DNA of 64,000 bases from Candidatus Obscuribacterales bacterium (GTDB lineage: Bacteria > Cyanobacteriota > Vampirovibrionia > Obscuribacterales > Obscuribacteraceae): NCBI GenBank assembly GCA_965228855.1, contig CBDDIJ010000002.1, positions 192,001 to 256,000 on the forward strand, in the 5' to 3' direction. A model generated the notes under the pieces. That model saw only the letters and a program-made list of their open reading frames with translations. It was not told the DNA's origin and did no database searches. A program made the position numbers and the translations under genes. The stretch's first letter is position 1, and the number at the start of each line of letters is the position of its first letter. Shown here one piece after another: positions 2,981 through 44,357 of this stretch.

Positions 2981-5041
2981 ATGTCTAGAAACACCCAGCG
3001 CCGCCCAGTGCGTCGCGCCAAATATGCCTTTTCGATGGTGAAACGCTGGCTGCCGATGCCCGATGGCACGAAGCTCGCCGCCACCATCTACCTGCCCACC
3101 GCCCACAAGGAGGGTGAGCGTTTTCCTGTACTCCTCGAACTCCTGCCCTACCGGAAAGACGACACGTTCTTCCTGATGGACTACCCGACCTATTCGTACT
3201 TCGCCAGACACGGCTACATGACCGTGAAGGTGGACATTCGAGGCACGGGTGCATCGCAAGGCGTGACGCCGCCCCGCGAATACTCGGACATCGAGCTCGA
3301 CGACGCCGTCGAAATCATTCGGCAGCTCGCCGACATGCCCGAAGCCAACGGCAACGTCGCGATGTGGGGCATCTCCTGGAGCGGTTTCAACTCCATTCAG
3401 GTTGCGATGCGTCGACCGCCTCAACTGAAGGCGATCATCGCGATGCACGCATCCGACGACCTGTACCACGACGACATCCACTACGTGGACGGTGTGCTGC
3501 ACCTCGACCCGTACCACCTGTTCATCAACCACGAACTCGGTCTGCCGCGCACCCCGCACTACAAGCTCGATGAGGACTACTTCCTCAACCGCTTCGACCA
3601 GACGCCCTGGCTGCTCACTTACCTGTCACAGCAGGAGGACGGCGACTTCTGGCGTCGCAAGTCGTTGCGCTTCCAGGGCTACGACAAAATCAACATCCCG
3701 GTTTATCTGATCGGCGGTCTCAACGACGGCTACCGGGACACGGTGATTCGCATGCTGGAAAACCTTTCCGGTCCTGTGCGCGCGGAAATCGGTCCCTGGG
3801 GTCATTCGTCGCCCGACGACGGCGTTCCCGGTCCGAACTTCGAATGGCAGGATGAAGCCATGGAATGGCTTTCGCCGTGGCTCGCGCCTGAGCGGTCCAT
3901 CGCTGAAGCCAGAAATCGCGGTTCGTCGAGGTCTGCGAACAAGCGCAGGCTGATGACTTTCGTGCGCGACGGTCATGAACCGGATCTCGACCAGACCGTT
4001 TCGCCCGGCACCTGGCGCGTGTTTGATTGGCCGGCAGCTGGTTCCAGCAAGCTGAAACTGTTTCTCGCCCCAGGCGGGAAGCTGGTCAATCGCTTCTTGA
4101 ACCATCAGGGACGAAACAGACTCGCATCCATCGACACCCATACCGCCACCGCCAGCAGTGGCACCGCCGCTGGTTGGTGGTGGGGCGAAACGACAGCGGA
4201 CATGCGCAACGACGACAGCGAATCACTCGTCTACGACAAGCTCGTGGATAAACCGATTCAAATCGTCGGTCTCCCGGAAGTGGGTCTGCGCGTTTCCAGT
4301 AAGAACGTCCGCGCCAACTGGTCGCTGCGTTTGGAAGATGTTTCGCCCACGGGAAAGGTGACGCTGGTGACAGGCGCACTGATCAACGGAGCGCATCTTA
4401 TCGAGCGACTTGGCGCGAGCGAACTCGAGCCGGGTAAAGTCTACGACCTGAGTACGAAGCTCCACTTCACCACGTGGACGTTCCAGAAGGGACATCGAAT
4501 CCGTCTGGCAGTTTCCAACGCTCAGTTCCCCATGGCGTGGCCGTCGGCAGACGTGGTTGAAACCTCCGTTCACACCGGGGGCGCAGCATCGACACTGACA
4601 CTACCGACGGTGCCCTTCGGTAGTGGTTCGCAACCCACGCTGCCGCGCGTGGCGCGCAAACGCTACAGCCCGTATGGAGAGGATGTGTGGTTGGAAGATG
4701 GAAAACCTGACAGTAAACGAGAGGTGATCCGTCGCGCAGACGGCAGCCTCTCTTTCTGCCTGGCAAGCCGTTCTGTCTATGATATTAAACGCCGTCGCTT
4801 CATTGTCGAAGGCAGCAACATCTGGACGACCAACGACAAAACTCCTGCAAAGTCGATGTACGAGGGCGAGATGCAAACCAGCATCATCACGGCTGCCCGC
4901 AAAATCGTGCTTAAGACGAACATAAAAGTAGAGTCGGACGAGAAAAACTTCACCGTCACAGTCACCCGCGAACTGCGCTGCAACGCCCGCAAAGTCCGCG
5001 CAAAAACCTGGACAAAAACAATCCCCCGCCGCCTCCACTAG
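2981..5041 (+). CDS. CocE/NonD family alpha/beta hydrolase (peptidase S15-like)
   Basis: PMPDGTKLAATIYLP, VDIRGTGASQG, nucleophile motif GISWSG, GPWGH, C-terminal RIRLAVSN domain. Confidence 0.9.
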   Translation: MSRNTQRRPVRRAKYAFSMVKRWLPMPDGTKLAATIYLPTAHKEGERFPVLLELLPYRKDDTFFLMDYPTYSYFARHGYMTVKVDIRGTGASQGVTPPREYSDIELDDAVEIIRQLADMPEANGNVAMWGISWSGFNSIQVAMRRPPQLKAIIAMHASDDLYHDDIHYVDGVLHLDPYHLFINHELGLPRTPHYKLDEDYFLNRFDQTPWLLTYLSQQEDGDFWRRKSLRFQGYDKINIPVYLIGGLNDGYRDTVIRMLENLSGPVRAEIGPWGHSSPDDGVPGPNFEWQDEAMEWLSPWLAPERSIAEARNRGSSRSANKRRLMTFVRDGHEPDLDQTVSPGTWRVFDWPAAGSSKLKLFLAPGGKLVNRFLNHQGRNRLASIDTHTATASSGTAAGWWWGETTADMRNDDSESLVYDKLVDKPIQIVGLPEVGLRVSSKNVRANWSLRLEDVSPTGKVTLVTGALINGAHLIERLGASELEPGKVYDLSTKLHFTTWTFQKGHRIRLAVSNAQFPMAWPSADVVETSVHTGGAASTLTLPTVPFGSGSQPTLPRVARKRYSPYGEDVWLEDGKPDSKREVIRRADGSLSFCLASRSVYDIKRRRFIVEGSNIWTTNDKTPAKSMYEGEMQTSIITAARKIVLKTNIKVESDEKNFTVTVTRELRCNARKVRAKTWTKTIPRRLH

Positions 5042-5188
5042 CTTCCCGCCAGTCGGTCCCTCCCCGGGACCCTCTGGTCTCCCGAATTTGCCTACTATAT
5101 GTTTACGTATCTCCGTAAGCCCGAGAATCGTTACGGTGTCGGTGTTCAGAGTCCTTCAAAACTTAAAAGAACACGAAAATTCCCAGAC

Positions 5189-5206
5189 TTGGCTACGTGG
5201 CTATGA
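5189..5206. repeat. left part of 54-bp element copy 2, split by the IS110 (remainder 6472-6507)
   Basis: Joining 5189-5206 to 6472-6507 restores tt-GGCTA-cgtggct-ATGAC-gcaatttcgaaattcc-GTCAT-cgaggga-TAGCC-aa. Confidence 0.85.
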
Positions 5207-5222
5207 GATAGTGTGTTCGCTG

Positions 5223-6188
5223 TCAACAATGAACGCTTAGATGATTGGGATTAAATGGTGTCTTTGTCCTGTAGATCGCCATCATGATGCGAAGTAGCTT
5301 GCGCATGGCGGCGCACAAGATGACTTTCCTTGGTTTGCACTTCTCTGCCAACTTTGTCGCGAATTTTTGAATGGCAGGGTTTGATCGAACTGCGCTCAGA
5401 GACGCCATGTAGAAAACTTTCCGGAGGCGCTTGCAGCCTTTCTTAGACATCTTCGGACGCCCTCGAACAGAAGTTCCAGACTCGCGCAATTCCGGAGTCA
5501 AGCCGCAGTAGCTCTCGACTTCTCTCAACGACTCGAAGGAATCCAAGCCGGAAATTTCCGTGAGAAACGTGAGTGCCGAGATCAAACCGACTCCAGGGAT
5601 GGTTTGCAGTAAGGCGAGATCGTTCTGAAATTGCGGTTCGGACTTGATCAAGAGGTCTCGAGCCTGTTCCAGCAGCAAAATCTCATTGTTGATGAATTCG
5701 ATTTGCCGCTGAAGCGAGATACTCACAGGTTCGTCGAGCCGACCGGACTCGGTACGATTCACGGTTCTGGTTCGGTCGGTTTTGAGCGCATCAATGTGAC
5801 GCTCAATGTTGCGAATCTTCCGGACCACGTCCGGGAGGGGCGTCCAGGTCTTCGGTTGAATCAGTTTGCAAAACTGTGCGATTACCTCGGCATCAATTGC
5901 GTCCGTCTTTGAACGCTTCAACAGGCTTTTGCCAAAGTTTTTGATCTGAACAGGATTGACGACGCTGACGGCAAAACCTTTGTCGCAGAAGTATTCTGCG
6001 AGTGGCTCCCAGAGCTTTCCAGTGGCCTCCATGCAAATTTGTACTTCGCTTTCGGTGTGCTGATTCAGCCACTTCTCAATTCGCCGAAATCCGCTGTCAG
6101 AGTTGTCAGCGTGCAACTTCCGCCCTCGTTCCGAGAGCAGATAGCAATCCACAGTCTCTTTAGAGATGTCTATCCCAAGTGATATCAC
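5223..6188 (-). CDS. IS110 family transposase / bridge recombinase
   Basis: RuvC-like DEDD residues (GIDISK, CMEATG, KTDAIDA), TIPGVG, and RESGTS with the catalytic Ser; GGAGG RBS. Confidence 0.95.
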   Translation of the reverse strand: MISLGIDISKETVDCYLLSERGRKLHADNSDSGFRRIEKWLNQHTESEVQICMEATGKLWEPLAEYFCDKGFAVSVVNPVQIKNFGKSLLKRSKTDAIDAEVIAQFCKLIQPKTWTPLPDVVRKIRNIERHIDALKTDRTRTVNRTESGRLDEPVSISLQRQIEFINNEILLLEQARDLLIKSEPQFQNDLALLQTIPGVGLISALTFLTEISGLDSFESLREVESYCGLTPELRESGTSVRGRPKMSKKGCKRLRKVFYMASLSAVRSNPAIQKFATKLAEKCKPRKVILCAAMRKLLRIMMAIYRTKTPFNPNHLSVHC

Positions 6189-6224
6189 GATGCGCCTCCA
6201 TTTAGACTTGCCAACCTACACAGG

Positions 6225-6440
6225 ACGCGGATAGAATCTTGTCAGGGCGAGCCTTGTACGCATGCTAAATCGTTCTAGGATTTGCATCTGATAGTGTTCA
6301 GCCTCAGAGGACAAGACAGAAACGGAAGTCCAAACCTCATAGCCTGACTTCGCGGTCATACGCATTTTCCTGGTTTCTTCCGTTTCTCTATCCTCGCGTC
6401 CTCGGATAGCCTTGCCGACAGCAGGACCTGGTGTCAATTG
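6225..6440 (-). ncRNA. predicted bridge RNA in the IS110 left end (ends approximate)
   Basis: Minus-strand order: GAAAATGCGT (6369-6360, left target), GGCTATGAG (6344-6336, right target), ACACTATC (6297-6290, left donor), CGTACAAG (6260-6253, right donor). Confidence 0.8.
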
Positions 6441-6617
6441 ATTGGGTCTGCTGTCAATCTCTAACGTACAACGCAATTTCGAAATTCCGTCATCGAGGGA
6501 TAGCCAAGAACCCACCTCTCGGATCGAATCCGTCTATCAGGTTCCGGCTTCGCGAAATTCCATAATGGCGAAGACTCTGACCAAGTTCAATTGCTACGCA
6601 ACATCCAACCCGCGATC

Positions 6618-8396
6618 TCACTTCGGGATCGAAAACCAAAACGTACTGCCCTTGCCGACTTCGCTTTCGACACCAATTGCGCCACCATGCTGTTCGACAA
6701 TCGCTTTACTAATCGCCAGTCCCAATCCAGTTCCGCTGCGGTTTTCCTCGCCCTCCGGCGCCTGCTTGAACCTGTCAAAAATAGTGCGGAGATACTCCGC
6801 CGCAATTCCACAACCCTCATCAGCGATCCTGAGAGAAACCGCCTCACCAAGCTCCTCTACAGAAACTCTCACGGTGCCGCCATCAGGAGAAAACTTGACC
6901 GCGTTTGAAACCAGATTTACCAGAACCTGAACAACCCGGTCTCCATCTACATTTAGAACCAGTGGTGTCGTCGGCGCCACCACCTTAACGTTCTTCTCGG
7001 CTGCCATCGCAGAGCACGCACCAACCGTCTGATCGAGCAGGTGCTGAACGTTTTGCTCCGACCTCCGCAACTTCATATGTCCAGATTCCAATCGATCTAT
7101 ATCCAGCAAATCGCAAATCAGCTTGACTAAGCGATCGATGCTTTTGCCCATCTGCGACAATCGTTCCCGACCCGACTGATTCAACTCGCCGTAGATTCCA
7201 TCCTCGAGAAGCTCCAGATAGTTCTGCACCGACGTGAGCGGTGTCCGCAAATCATGGCTCACCATTGAAACAAAGTCTTGCTTCATCCGCTCCAACTGCT
7301 TGCGATCGGTAATATTGTGCGCGACGCAAAAGTACGATCCATCAGTCTCTGACCAGGTTACCGACCAGAGCGTATCAACCACAGTGCCGTCCTCACGCAG
7401 CATCCTGTTCTCAAAGGACTTACTAGTCCTTTCAGAACGCGCCTGTTCAAGCTCCTTAACAGTAGCTTCACGCTCGTCAGCGACGATGTACTTAACGTAA
7501 TGCGCCCCCAGTAAGTCATCCGCATCCCTTCCGAGAAGCTCTGCCGAAGCCGGATTCACACGTTCCAGGACGCCTGACTTACTGATTGAAAAGATCATAT
7601 CCGCAGTATTGTCCACGACCGCGCGCTCGCGCATCGAAGCCAGCGTCAGCGCTTCAGCCATCTCCCTGAATGTGTGGTCGAGATGCGCAAGCTCATCATT
7701 ACCTTTAATTGGAGGACTGAGCGGCAAACCACGAGCAAGCCTAACGGTGTTATCCATGAGAACTGAGAGCCTTCCGGTCAATTCGCGAATGACTACGACA
7801 ACAACGACAAATGCGATCACCGTATTCAATACCACACCAATGAACAACCAGCTTTGAATTCGCTTTCGCTGCTCCGTCTGAACCTTCGGATAGAGCTCCT
7901 CCGCCTTGCGTTCCTCTTCTAGAATTTTGTCGAGCTCTTTGGTTAGATTTCCGAAAATTTGCTGCGCCCTGTCCTTGGTCGCGAGGATGCCTTCGTCGCG
8001 TAAAATCCGCTTCAACACTCGAAGTTGATCGGCGCCGTCGCGCATCAATTTCTGCGCACGCTCAAAGTGCTCACGAGCAGCGGGATAATCAGCCAGCGCT
8101 TTGGTTAATATGCGCTCCTCTTTTTCAATTTTCTCGCGCGCCCTGGCATCGCGCTCCGCTCGTTTCTCCTTATCCGCAGCGATGGTGAAACCGGCACCAG
8201 CTGTGGCATTATCAAGAAGAATTCTATGGACTTCGTTGACGTGCGTGATAATCGAACGCGCAATGAATTCGTTCTGGCGCTCCCGCTCGGCTTCTGCAAG
8301 AAGATTGCTGAGAACCAACACAAAGCAAAATTCAAACACCAGTGGCAGTACCACTAGAATCAGCATCTTGTGAGAAAGCTTCAGACCTTTTGCCAT
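6618..8396 (-). CDS. membrane sensor histidine kinase (2 TM, HAMP, PAS, HisKA, HATPase)
   Basis: SHDLRTPL H-box, NLVSNAVKF, DEGCGI, GTGLGLAI, GKGSTF. Confidence 0.95.
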   Translation of the reverse strand: MAKGLKLSHKMLILVVLPLVFEFCFVLVLSNLLAEAERERQNEFIARSIITHVNEVHRILLDNATAGAGFTIAADKEKRAERDARAREKIEKEERILTKALADYPAAREHFERAQKLMRDGADQLRVLKRILRDEGILATKDRAQQIFGNLTKELDKILEEERKAEELYPKVQTEQRKRIQSWLFIGVVLNTVIAFVVVVVVIRELTGRLSVLMDNTVRLARGLPLSPPIKGNDELAHLDHTFREMAEALTLASMRERAVVDNTADMIFSISKSGVLERVNPASAELLGRDADDLLGAHYVKYIVADEREATVKELEQARSERTSKSFENRMLREDGTVVDTLWSVTWSETDGSYFCVAHNITDRKQLERMKQDFVSMVSHDLRTPLTSVQNYLELLEDGIYGELNQSGRERLSQMGKSIDRLVKLICDLLDIDRLESGHMKLRRSEQNVQHLLDQTVGACSAMAAEKNVKVVAPTTPLVLNVDGDRVVQVLVNLVSNAVKFSPDGGTVRVSVEELGEAVSLRIADEGCGIAAEYLRTIFDRFKQAPEGEENRSGTGLGLAISKAIVEQHGGAIGVESEVGKGSTFWFSIPK

Positions 8397-10782: not shown

Positions 10783-10807
10783 CGAGCGAGAAATTTCGCC
10801 TGTTCCG

Positions 10808-10898
10808 GAAATTTCTACTAAATTCCAGTCCGAAATTTCTACTATATTCCAGCCCGAAATCCCTACTATAGTCCAGCCCGAAATCTCTACTATATTCC
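10808..10898 (+). repeat. four tandem 24-bp repeats GAAATYYCTACTAWADTCCAGYCC
   Basis: CTACTA at 10815, 10839, 10863, 10887. Confidence 0.9.
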
Positions 10899-10982
10899 CG
10901 CGTATTCGCATGCACCCGAGATCGAAACGCAGACGGCACTTTCGAGACTTCCAATCCAAACACAATAGTCCAAAACCAAGCT

Positions 10983-41321: not shown

Positions 41322-41702
41322 ATGACTCACGCAGCACAATCCACCTTTCCTCGTCGCGGCGAAATCCGGTCTTTCCAGGATGCGTCCGAGGTTCGCTTCG
41401 GCGTCGTCATCTCCGACGATGCGCGCAACGAAAAGGCGAACGACGTCCTGCTCGTTCCGCTCAAGTCGACCGCGCAGTCGCCTCAGAGCGCGTCGCTCCC
41501 GACTCCCGGTCAGCCGCTCATCCCAAGCGCTCTTTCCGGTCTGTCCAGTGACTGCCGCGCGACCTGCGCCGACATCACTCGCGTCGAGAAGAGCGACCTC
41601 CTCGATGGTCCGGTCGGCACTCTGCCCGAGGTCCACCTGATGCAGATCGTGCGCGCCATCCGGGCAGCAATCGGCGACGCCCTCGTGCACCCCGTGCACT
41701 GA
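41322..41702 (+). CDS. PemK/MazF-like endoribonuclease fold protein
   Basis: PRRGEI, RFGVVISDDARN, VLLVPL, GL..D....DITRVEKSDL...VGTL. Confidence 0.75.
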   Translation: MTHAAQSTFPRRGEIRSFQDASEVRFGVVISDDARNEKANDVLLVPLKSTAQSPQSASLPTPGQPLIPSALSGLSSDCRATCADITRVEKSDLLDGPVGTLPEVHLMQIVRAIRAAIGDALVHPVH

Positions 41703-41892
41703 GAAATCGCGGACGCTCCCGTACGCCCCGTGCACTGAGAAATTGCGGACGCGCTCTCGCGCCCCCCCGTGCACTGATAAATTGCGGACGCGCTCTCGCG
41801 CCCCCCGTGCACTGAGAAATCGCGGACGCTCTCGTACGCCCCGTGCACCGAGAAATTGCGGACGCTCTCGCGCCCCCCGGTGCATTGAGATC
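41690..41892 (+). repeat. about 5.5 tandem 36-39-bp repeats CCCCGTGCACTGAGAAATYGCGGACGC...
   Basis: The first unit overlaps the stop codon of the PemK-like gene; no unique spacers. Confidence 0.9.
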
Positions 41893-41959
41893 GCCGCGCG
41901 CTCAGGCTCGAGCCTGAGCGCAACTGATCGTTTCCACCAATAACAATAAGGAACCAATC

Positions 41960-42819: not shown

Positions 42820-43270
42820 AAAAAGTGGGAAAAACAAATCACTTTTCGCCCAAAACTGATCGATTTTTGCCACATTTCCTTTTCCGAATCGAAAATCGGT
42901 GGAGCCAGACCGAATCGGCGGAAGCAAACGGAATCCGCGGAGCCGACCGGAATCGGCGGAGCTGAAACTGAGTCCGCGGAGACTGCAATCTCAAAAAGTG
43001 GCAAAAACAGATCACTTTTCGCCCAAAACTGATCGATTTTTGCCACATTTCCTTTTCCGAATCGAAAATCGGTGGAGCCAGACCGAATCGGCGGAAGCAA
43101 ACGGAATCCGCGGAGCCGACCGGAATCGGCGGAGCTGAAACTGAGTCCGCGGAGACTGCAATCTCAAAAAGTGTGGCAAAAACAGATCACTTTTCGCCCA
43201 AAACTGATCGATTTTTGCCACATTTCCTTTTCCGAATCGAAAATCCGCGGAGCTAGACCGAATCGGCGGA
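42820..43270 (+). repeat. about 2.6 tandem copies of a ~173-bp unit
   Basis: ATCACTTTTCGCCCAAAACTGATCGATTTTTGCCACATTTCC... occurs three times. Confidence 0.95.
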
Positions 43271-43348
43271 GCAGCAGCGGAAGCGCCCCAAAAGGGGGAA
43301 GGAGAGCGCGAATCAATCGCAAACTCTCCTCCCCTCAATCACTGTGGC

Positions 43349-43564: not shown

Positions 43565-43974
43565 AGTCACCTCACGTTTACTTAAAATCTGCTTGAAATC
43601 GGCTGCAGAAGAGGTTTTCCAAAAACACACAACGACCGTCACTACGAATCCGAATCACAAGGACGCTCGCCGAAACACCCACCAGACATAGTACACAACC
43701 GGTTTCACGCGAAACACGATCGTTGCTGATACTCGGGCGTATGCTTGAGTGTTTAGAGATTTGAGAAGAAAAAATGCAATCAATTACTGCAACAGGTTAA
43801 ACGAACGACTCTAATACCATCAATATCAAAAGCCTGGATAACAATTGTCAGTAGCCAATTCACGCCCTAATTTGGTTAGCACGGCTAACGCAACCCGCTC
43901 CAGAAGCCACTTGACATTCACTCCTGACAAGCTCGACGAAAGCTGCGAAACAAGACGGCTCCGCAGGTGCAAAG

Positions 43975-44157
43975 GGCCCAACGAAAGCTGCATCACCTAG
44001 AACGGCTCGGCAGCTGCAACGGCCCAACGAAAGCTGCATCACCTAGAACGGCTCGGCAGCTGCAACGGCCCAACGAAAGCTGCATCACCTAGAACGGCTC
44101 GGCAGCTGCAACGGCCCAACGAAAGCTGCATCACCTAGAACGGCTCGGCAGCTGCAG
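43975..44157 (+). repeat. four essentially identical tandem 46-bp repeats with degenerate flanking copies
   Basis: GGCCCAACGAAAGCTGCATCACCTAGAACGGCTCGGCAGCTGCAAC at 43975, 44021, 44067, 44113. Confidence 0.95.
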
Positions 44158-44357
44158 CAGCTACAGCGGCCTCATCTGCATCACAAAGAACGGTCCGGCA
44201 GGTGCTGCACAGGCTCCGGCAGGTGCGAATCGGAAAAACCGATTCCATAGCCCTCAAGAAAAACAGCGGAATGGGGAATAAACCCACTCCGCTGCTCGAC
44301 ACGTTCTCAAAATCCGAAAGGCGAAATCTCCTTCTTCCCGGGAGAAACTCGCAAATT

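Follow-up and report, generated by a model that had tools for sequence, protein, structure and literature searches.

The element and its insertion site

The window, that is the whole 64,000-nucleotide stretch of DNA that was analysed, contains an intact insertion sequence, here termed IS-A, which interrupts a 54-bp palindromic repeat of its Obscuribacterales host genome (Table 1). Its extent is given by a contig from an independent run (X9) in which position 5205 is joined to 6471; exactly 1265 bases are skipped and one letter fits either side, so the empty window site exists as DNA. Removal of the IS had been claimed to restore the repeat, and when 5206-6470 are taken out the rebuilt copy scores 60.9 bits, where intact copies have a median of 59.1 and a minimum of 34.3. 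Insertion leaves no flanking duplication except for one shared T (5/5 empty alleles). The long left end of 282 bp, which holds the predicted RNA, and the right end of just 17 bp place IS-A in the IS110 group; the IS1111 group was considered and rejected because it needs a long downstream non-coding region.

If the ends were joined into a circle, the predicted junction would carry TTGACA-17 bp-TACGTT, a putative promoter, and TTGAC is found at the same place in relatives. A promoter scan of the integrated element returned one plus-strand site only, at chance level, as is expected if the promoter arises at the circle junction. No head-to-tail circle joint was seen in the contigs of the four runs (4/4), contigs being prone to drop rare forms.

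Table 1. Features of IS-A, its relatives and the host repeat (window positions unless another sequence is named)
Feature	Position	Strand	Remarks
IS-A (IS110-group element)	5206..6470	-	1265 bp; empty allele in run X9
Left flank GAAATTGCGT	6480-6471	-
Element start TGTACG	at 6470	-
Element end ACACTATCT	5214-5206	-	left donor + CT core
Right flank CATAGCC	5205-5199	-
Right end of IS-A	5206..5226	-	TTGACA (-35, 5226-5221) + left donor/CT core
Left tip of IS-A	6463..6470	-	right donor + -10-like TACGTT (6468-6463)
Interrupted host repeat, first 37 bp	6471..6507	-	ends in left target + GT core (6479-6471)
Interrupted host repeat, last 17 bp	5189..5205	-	begins with right target CATAGCC
IS-A recombinase, 321 aa, DEDD/Ser	5223..6188	-	profile and structure matches, residue alignment
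GGAGG ahead of recombinase ORF	6199-6195	-
Predicted bridge RNA	6225..6457	-	ends inferred from predicted junction promoter and conserved scaffold
Target-binding arm	6307..6395	-	outer stem 6395-6377 / 6328-6307; relatives' alignment
Left target guide (LTG) AAAATGCGT	6360..6368 (6369/6368-6360)	-	holds the target's GT core
Right target guide (RTG)	6334..6344	-	6344-6336: 7 nt + AG core pair, plus handshake GT
Left donor guide (LDG)	6289..6297	-	6297-6290: 8 nt, then A as in IS621
Right donor guide (RDG) CGTACAAG	6251..6260	-	6260-6253 + handshake GC
Window copies of the repeat	1671, 10982, 14980, 15207, 20636, 20842, 21748, 26744, 27062, 30961, 33119, 57781, 62783
Composite repeat zone	G000 C2:77,000-1,200,000
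IS-B copies L076, L077, L079	G000 C2 about 774.7-776.0, 858.6-859.8, 1120.8-1122.0 kb
AT-core relatives	L054, L056, L058, L060-L062, L064-L066, L068, L069, L072-L074		MEGTG in place of MEATG at the position of IS621 Ala61

The recombinase

The IS-A protein comprises the domains PF01548 (E=3.6e-27) and PF02371 (E=1.5e-23), and its matches in the PDB are IS621 (E=4.6e-50) and ISCro4 (E=8.3e-47) only. The residues D7, E54, D96, D99 and S237 align with D11, E60, D102, D105 and S241 of IS621, and in the same alignment the core-sensing A55, G57 and N78 are equal to A61, G63 and N84. Identification of the element as an IS110 recombinase with a left-end bridge RNA layout, which the earlier note had put forward, is upheld by these domains and the IS621 match together with guide covariation and compensatory changes in the outer stem.

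The predicted bridge RNA

All motifs named in the earlier note were recovered at their minus-strand places, and the guides follow the order LTG-RTG-LDG-RDG that it had given. Single guide matches of at least 8 bases each occurred in 85, 17, 7 and 6 of 3000 dinucleotide shuffles of the left end, and all four jointly in 0/3000. The claim that the RTG is an exact complement of CTCATAGCC holds for the product junction and fails for the empty target, which has GT there; the element itself supplies, as its end, the CT of CTCATAGCC, so that exactness is confined to the product. [quoted passage not shown]

A search of positions 4900-6900 against Rfam gave no match at E<=5. When the left end is folded as a single sequence (z=-1.94) part of each guide is paired, and keeping all guides open costs 4.1 kcal/mol. 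The relatives give a different result from this single fold. A scaffold pattern search yielded 30 loci, 13 of them metagenome stretches and 17 located in family genomes (11 of the 104), and 20 of these 30, one or two per type, were used for a consensus alignment, in which all guides are unpaired between stems. Guides lying in open loops had been expected, and the expectation is borne out by the consensus of 20 relatives and not by the single-sequence fold. Two-sided changes occur at 8/25 pairs of the consensus fold and at 7/9 pairs of the inner helix of the target arm, and stem covariation amounts to 0.220 as against 0.143 in shuffled and 0.07-0.11 in slid controls; small inner hairpins are absent from the consensus. 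The predicted RNA would accordingly be described as having the IS621-type layout, with the guides in the order LTG-RTG-LDG-RDG in two putative loops closed by conserved stems.

Copies, the sibling IS-B and the choice of site

The genome under study (G000) holds four copies of IS-A with 1-3 differences, and a sister genome (G193) holds one. The earlier note had named the host repeat as target and proposed that further copies be mapped, and all of them lie in it: insertion is after base 37 of the 54-bp repeat in 5/5 cases, and the related IS-B-type elements directly follow base 6 of that repeat in 4/4 cases (three in G000, and the relative L055), two of the nine sites having been scored on the opposite strand, where they read one base higher. 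With the element removed, each of the nine sites rebuilds a full-scoring repeat. IS-B has 1256 bp, three copies in G000, the same two ends as IS-A and 52% amino acid identity to it; it has a CT core and the same donor, the target guides differ, and these guides fit its own sites and not those of IS-A. In L055 the guides have changed further and again match their own site.

IS-A picks a rare subtype of the repeat: the right target GTCATAGC follows the cut at 5/5 of its sites, and among 420 oriented intact repeats 21 contain it. Copies of IS-A differ in the LTG, with AAAAAGCGT present in three G000 copies, AAAATGCGT in the window copy, and AAATTGCGT in the G193 copy as well as in the runs X6 and X9. 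At position 5, guide and flank have the same base in 4/5 copies, and in one of them (L080, G000 C5:860952-862216) the target has A at base 5, matching its guide; the G193 allele of this site and the tandem neighbour have T there. An empty copy of the repeat, copy 8 (21773-21759, minus strand), had been proposed as a candidate target. It matches at 8/9 left and 4/7 right positions (12/16 in total) and is outscored by 28/420 oriented repeat halves, and right-hand matches number 6-7/7 at each of the five occupied sites; copy 8 is rejected as the best empty site and ranks as a weak candidate. The 'new target specificity' that the earlier note ascribed to the element is real but usual in this family, in which IS621 and ISPpu10 target REPs and ISEc21/ISMch6 show natural retargeting.

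Across the IS-A clade, the target guides covary with the insertion sites. The comparison comprised 25 distinct guide/flank pairs, one locus having no left end and four repeating a pair, and its rows are relatives and not independent. LTG positions 1-8 agree with the flank at 160/200 positions (permutation mean 69.6; 0/20000 as high), and the RTG agrees at 87/126 over 18 pairs (permutation mean 48.3; 0/20000), the RTG having been anchored on AG in a register that is backed by 17/18 matches at the first two right-target bases. Reducing the data to a single row for each guide type gives 66/80 (0/20000) for the LTG and 38/49 (7/20000) for the RTG. The LTG positions of L064 and L066 were set by hand, and poor fits are seen in L059 (LTG 4/9) and L064 (RTG 0/7). 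The RTG of L064 and its right target are shifted by two bases relative to each other, as would follow from a gain of two bases at the right junction.

Guide pairing explains occupancy in part, as three empty sites match the window guide at 15/16 positions and one occupied site scores 12/16. It may be asked, then, whether the site is set mainly by the DNA structure of the palindrome or by a bound host protein, with the RNA match being secondary. Such a reading could appeal to the well-matched sites that remain empty, to the location of 9/9 IS-A and IS-B-type sites inside the palindrome, and to ISPpu10, which requires a target stem-loop besides pairing (10.64898/2026.03.19.712850). It is nonetheless improbable, since the two siblings use different boxes of one palindrome in keeping with their guides, and 12 of 21 scored clade loci lie outside the 54-bp repeat with guides that still match the flanks; for these reasons structure cannot replace the guides, and it may be an added gate.

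Unlike cores in target and donor

The empty alleles of all five IS-A sites have a GT core (5/5). They were found for the window site in the X9 contig, for the three other G000 sites in G193, and for the G193 site in G000, where the allele has 93.9% identity over 2719 bp. The right junctions of IS-A end in CT, again in 5/5 cases, and target and donor therefore share only T9. Recombination between unlike cores is proven at the DNA level for IS-A and is spread through its clade. LTG base 8 equals target base 8 at 25/25 clade sites (A 12, C 8, G 5), and at the 18 sites with both ends the left/right cores are AT/CT (7), CT/CT (6) and GT/CT (5), so that 12/18 have unlike cores; the right-end pattern demanded CT, and 7/25 sites are without a called right end. 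LDG base 8, read independently of that pattern, is C in 29/30 loci, and the AAG columns of the RDG are invariant in the RNA alignment. Empty sites prove only the IS-A alleles, and the AT cores rest on guide matches. IS-A lacks a matched core paired by all four guides, and it is for this reason filed as an IS621-like variant.

The published model places the same core on both partners (PMC11208160, PMC13626964, 10.1101/2025.05.14.653916), and it could be argued that the cores of IS-A also match during recombination, a CT in the target having changed later or the circle having taken GT from the left flank. This is very improbable indeed given GT in every empty allele and CT at every right junction, and given an LDG with C at base 8 and an RDG ending in AG, yet an LTG with G.

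The sequence of the top strand is kept at 9/10 IS-A junctions. At the right junction of L080 the target's C stands at donor position 7, possibly as the trace of a partly repaired heteroduplex, a single case noticed after the fact.

Outside the clade, the element L010 (genome G202; 40% amino acid identity) combines a TT target core with a CT donor and a 9/9 guide match, and its donor is close to that of IS621. Among 18 distant relatives, 7 gave a plausible core call, and all of these are matched, six being CT/CT (IS621 included) and one AT/AT, with two of the calls doubtful; the core script resolved the IS621 control in this set correctly, made no call at the other 11 of the 18 and made none at most of 17 outgroup loci. 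One distant relative, L108 (G423), has a possible matched AT/AT core on a doubtful call.

Residue 61 and the breadth of core tolerance

Ala61 of IS621 is the stated reason why, at base 8, C or G is preferred to A or T (PMC11208158). In the IS-A clade, Gly is found at this position in 9/9 distinct AT-core guide pairs with a readable protein, and Ala or Ser in 8/8 such pairs with a CT or GT core. In the protein tree, built without L056 (169 aa aligned) and the loci that lack a readable protein, IS-A and IS-B are sisters (100/99) within a supported group (97/96) that otherwise consists of AT elements with an uncertain inner branching order. Because IS-A and IS-B are placed among AT elements, the association of Gly61 with AT cores counts as one or two events and no statistic is attached to it.

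It is conceivable that unlike cores reflect a general and overlooked tolerance of IS621-type recombinases, such that an NT target and a CT donor need a change of LTG base 8 only and IS-A is ordinary. We would give this a little under an even chance. IS621 cuts the top strands 3' of T9, and its products already have mismatches beside the core, at positions 6-7 (PMC11208158, PMC13626964); 15 of 117 IS621 off-target sites are without CT (PMC11208160); L010, from a separate lineage, has unlike cores and keeps Ala at position 61 despite T8; and IS-A retains the residues corresponding to A61, G63 and N84. The engineered tests in the accessible part of PMC11208160 altered all four core-reading guide bases together, with no LTG-only design among them, and this, along with the off-targets lacking CT, is why the tolerance may be general. 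On the other side, IS621 strongly prefers guide pairing to both core strands (PMC11208160), and CT and GT cores are reported to be orthogonal in IS621, cross-reaction being abolished (10.64898/2026.04.29.721476). The matched cores of the 7 callable distant relatives, two of them doubtful, and the Gly at position 61 of AT-core members also speak against it.

A proposed mechanism

IS-A, as an intact element inserted after base 37 with a GT target and a CT end, very probably moves by an IS621-like circle and a left-end bridge RNA in which the LTG alone reads the first core base. In a first step its ends would join, creating the junction promoter and the donor ACACTAT-CT-TGTAC. To judge from covariation, the LTG would then pair with target bases 1-9, G8 included, and the RTG with T9 and seven right-hand bases, its G lying opposite G8 (the scheme for RTG and target is that of PMC11208158). 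By homology, cleavage of the two top strands 3' of T9 and their exchange would fall to the D7/E54/D96/D99-S237 sites. Before exchange, on this analysis, the G of the RTG would face target G8; afterwards it would gain a pair with donor C8, so that position 8 would act as an additional handshake within the target loop. In the donor loop that pair would be lost, and the handshake GC of the RDG, which is complementary to positions 7 and 6 of the target, would form two new pairs with C7 and G6. IS621 has been given the same extra base by engineering in order to promote exchange (PMC11208158). Resolution of the bottom strands would leave three mismatches, at positions 6-8, as against the usual two, and replication or repair would remove them; the outcome would be a left GT and a right CT, the end junctions that are observed.

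A broader proposal can be made for the clade, tentatively and with somewhat poorer prospects of being right than wrong: that the core has been cut to a single T; that with a fixed CT donor efficient insertion at AT, CT or GT is set by the LTG alone; that a third handshake forms at position 8; that Ala61-to-Gly serves AT; that IS621 lacks this ability; and that two members occupy two boxes of an undescribed, origin-centred and helically phased site.

Relation to known elements

Published sources are cited here for what their accessible portions state. IS621 of E. coli (PMC11208160, PMC11208158, PMC13626964; PDB 8WT6) resembles IS-A in its domains and catalytic residues, with about 34% identity, in its left-end RNA and junction promoter (both predicted in IS-A), in guide order and 8-nt LDG followed by A, in a donor that differs at two of 14 bases, and in insertion into an intergenic palindromic repeat, the host repeats being different. 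In contrast to IS621, which has CT on both partners, IS-A joins a GT target to a CT donor; it has a natural RTG of 7 nt instead of 4 (longer RTGs are known in orthologues), a contiguous RDG, and handshakes GT/GC instead of AT/GT. ISCro4/IS622 (PDB 9T56; 10.1101/2025.05.14.653916) shares the fold family and the bridge RNA logic with IS-A; its design rules, unlike IS-A, demand identical cores in both partners. ISPpu10 of Pseudomonas putida (10.64898/2026.03.19.712850) is likewise a bridge-RNA element whose sites are restricted to an intergenic palindromic repeat, with an RTG less tolerant than the LTG as in IS-A, but its target is a classical REP and its core is CT on both sides.

ISEc21 and ISMch6 (PMC11187229) are similar to IS-A in their upstream non-coding RNA (predicted in IS-A), the lack of duplication and natural retargeting through guide changes. 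They belong to another branch of the family (345-385 aa), their cores are not analysed in the accessible part of that source, and two retargeted siblings on one repeat in one genome, as described here, set IS-A apart from them. The IS1111-attC group (ISKpn4, ISPst6; PMC11187229) also uses a many-copy boxed palindromic target that is maybe a recombination or protein-binding site; these elements differ from IS-A in having a downstream RNA and subterminal repeats.

Repeat targeting, long RTGs, duplication-free insertion and natural retargeting are already published. Where the accessible literature has non-CT cores, they are matched pairs built into both partners by engineering. No native mode with unlike cores in target and donor was found reported in the literature covered, which extended to papers open without subscription, and the accessible portions of 10.64898/2026.08.14.744561 and 10.1101/2025.10.25.684509 yielded nothing on cores.

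Bridge recombinases are under development as programmable editors, whose design is taken to be limited by the need for a matched CT (or GT) core, and orthologues with relaxed constraints have been called for (PMC13396178). The joining of unlike cores by IS-A would loosen that limit, and the natural GT/CT and AT/CT insertions offer a testable recipe for a wider target space, namely a change of LTG base 8 alone and Ala61Gly. Core orthogonality, on which 10.64898/2026.04.29.721476 relies, may, by the same token, fail in some orthologues, and pipelines that define cores as repeated dinucleotides may overlook unlike-core elements. IS-A and IS-B, with one donor and two target loops, constitute a ready-made natural control for reprogramming.

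The host repeat

The 54-bp repeat consists of four G-K-C/G-M-C boxes with 7-bp spacers, has TTGTCTAY...RTAGACAA in its consensus, and is present in G000 in 210 intact copies by weight matrix (0 in the shuffled genome). C2 holds 178/210, of which 174 are in its first 1.2 Mb, in a zone that surrounds dnaA (793 kb) and the switch in GC skew. The repeat is mostly intergenic (134/178 C2 copies outside long ORFs, by a crude call), is often found in tandem arrays, and is present in 2/104 family genomes; hairpin covariation within it is modest. A companion motif, ATAGTAG, lies 66-68, 75-82, 85-93 or 98-103 bp from the end of the repeat (202 oriented units); these distances, of about 67, 78, 89 and 101 bp, are phased at 11 bp. 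G193 is enriched in the companion motif, and four further genomes of this genus are not.

Being intergenic, palindromic, abundant, lineage-restricted and clustered in tandem, the repeat has the traits of REP/REPIN elements. The RAYT transposase family (PF01797) was considered as its source and rejected, as it was not found in G000, which is 95% complete, and was found in 6/14 controls. Among 247 ORFs adjoining repeats no recurring mobiliser family was found besides the IS110s. Integron attC sites have the outer boxes RYYYAAC and GTTRRRY; the repeat consensus differs from these and the repeat lacks the attC core consensus, so attC was likewise set aside. The repeat looks like an element that behaves as REP/BIME sequences do and yet resembles a phased protein-binding or recombination site. 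No description of it was found in the literature covered, that is papers open without subscription.

Two tyrosine recombinase genes lie in the repeat-rich region, at G000 C2:370183-370671 (L088) and C2:923495-923977 (L089); both are candidates for a link to the repeat, and L088 is about 1.4 kb from a copy. Over G000 C2:1-600,000, the window included, GC content falls from 59% to 55%, compared with 50-51% elsewhere. In a check on whether copies of the repeat border strain-variable segments, window positions 1-39000 were without a counterpart in G193 (91% complete) except for the IS. Positions 10805-10900 of the window contain tandem 24-bp units, each with the companion motif, beside a 54-bp repeat, and further tandem arrays are located at 41642-41914 (36-38-bp units), 42820-43340 (173-bp units with internal inverted arms) and 43926-44201 (46-bp units).
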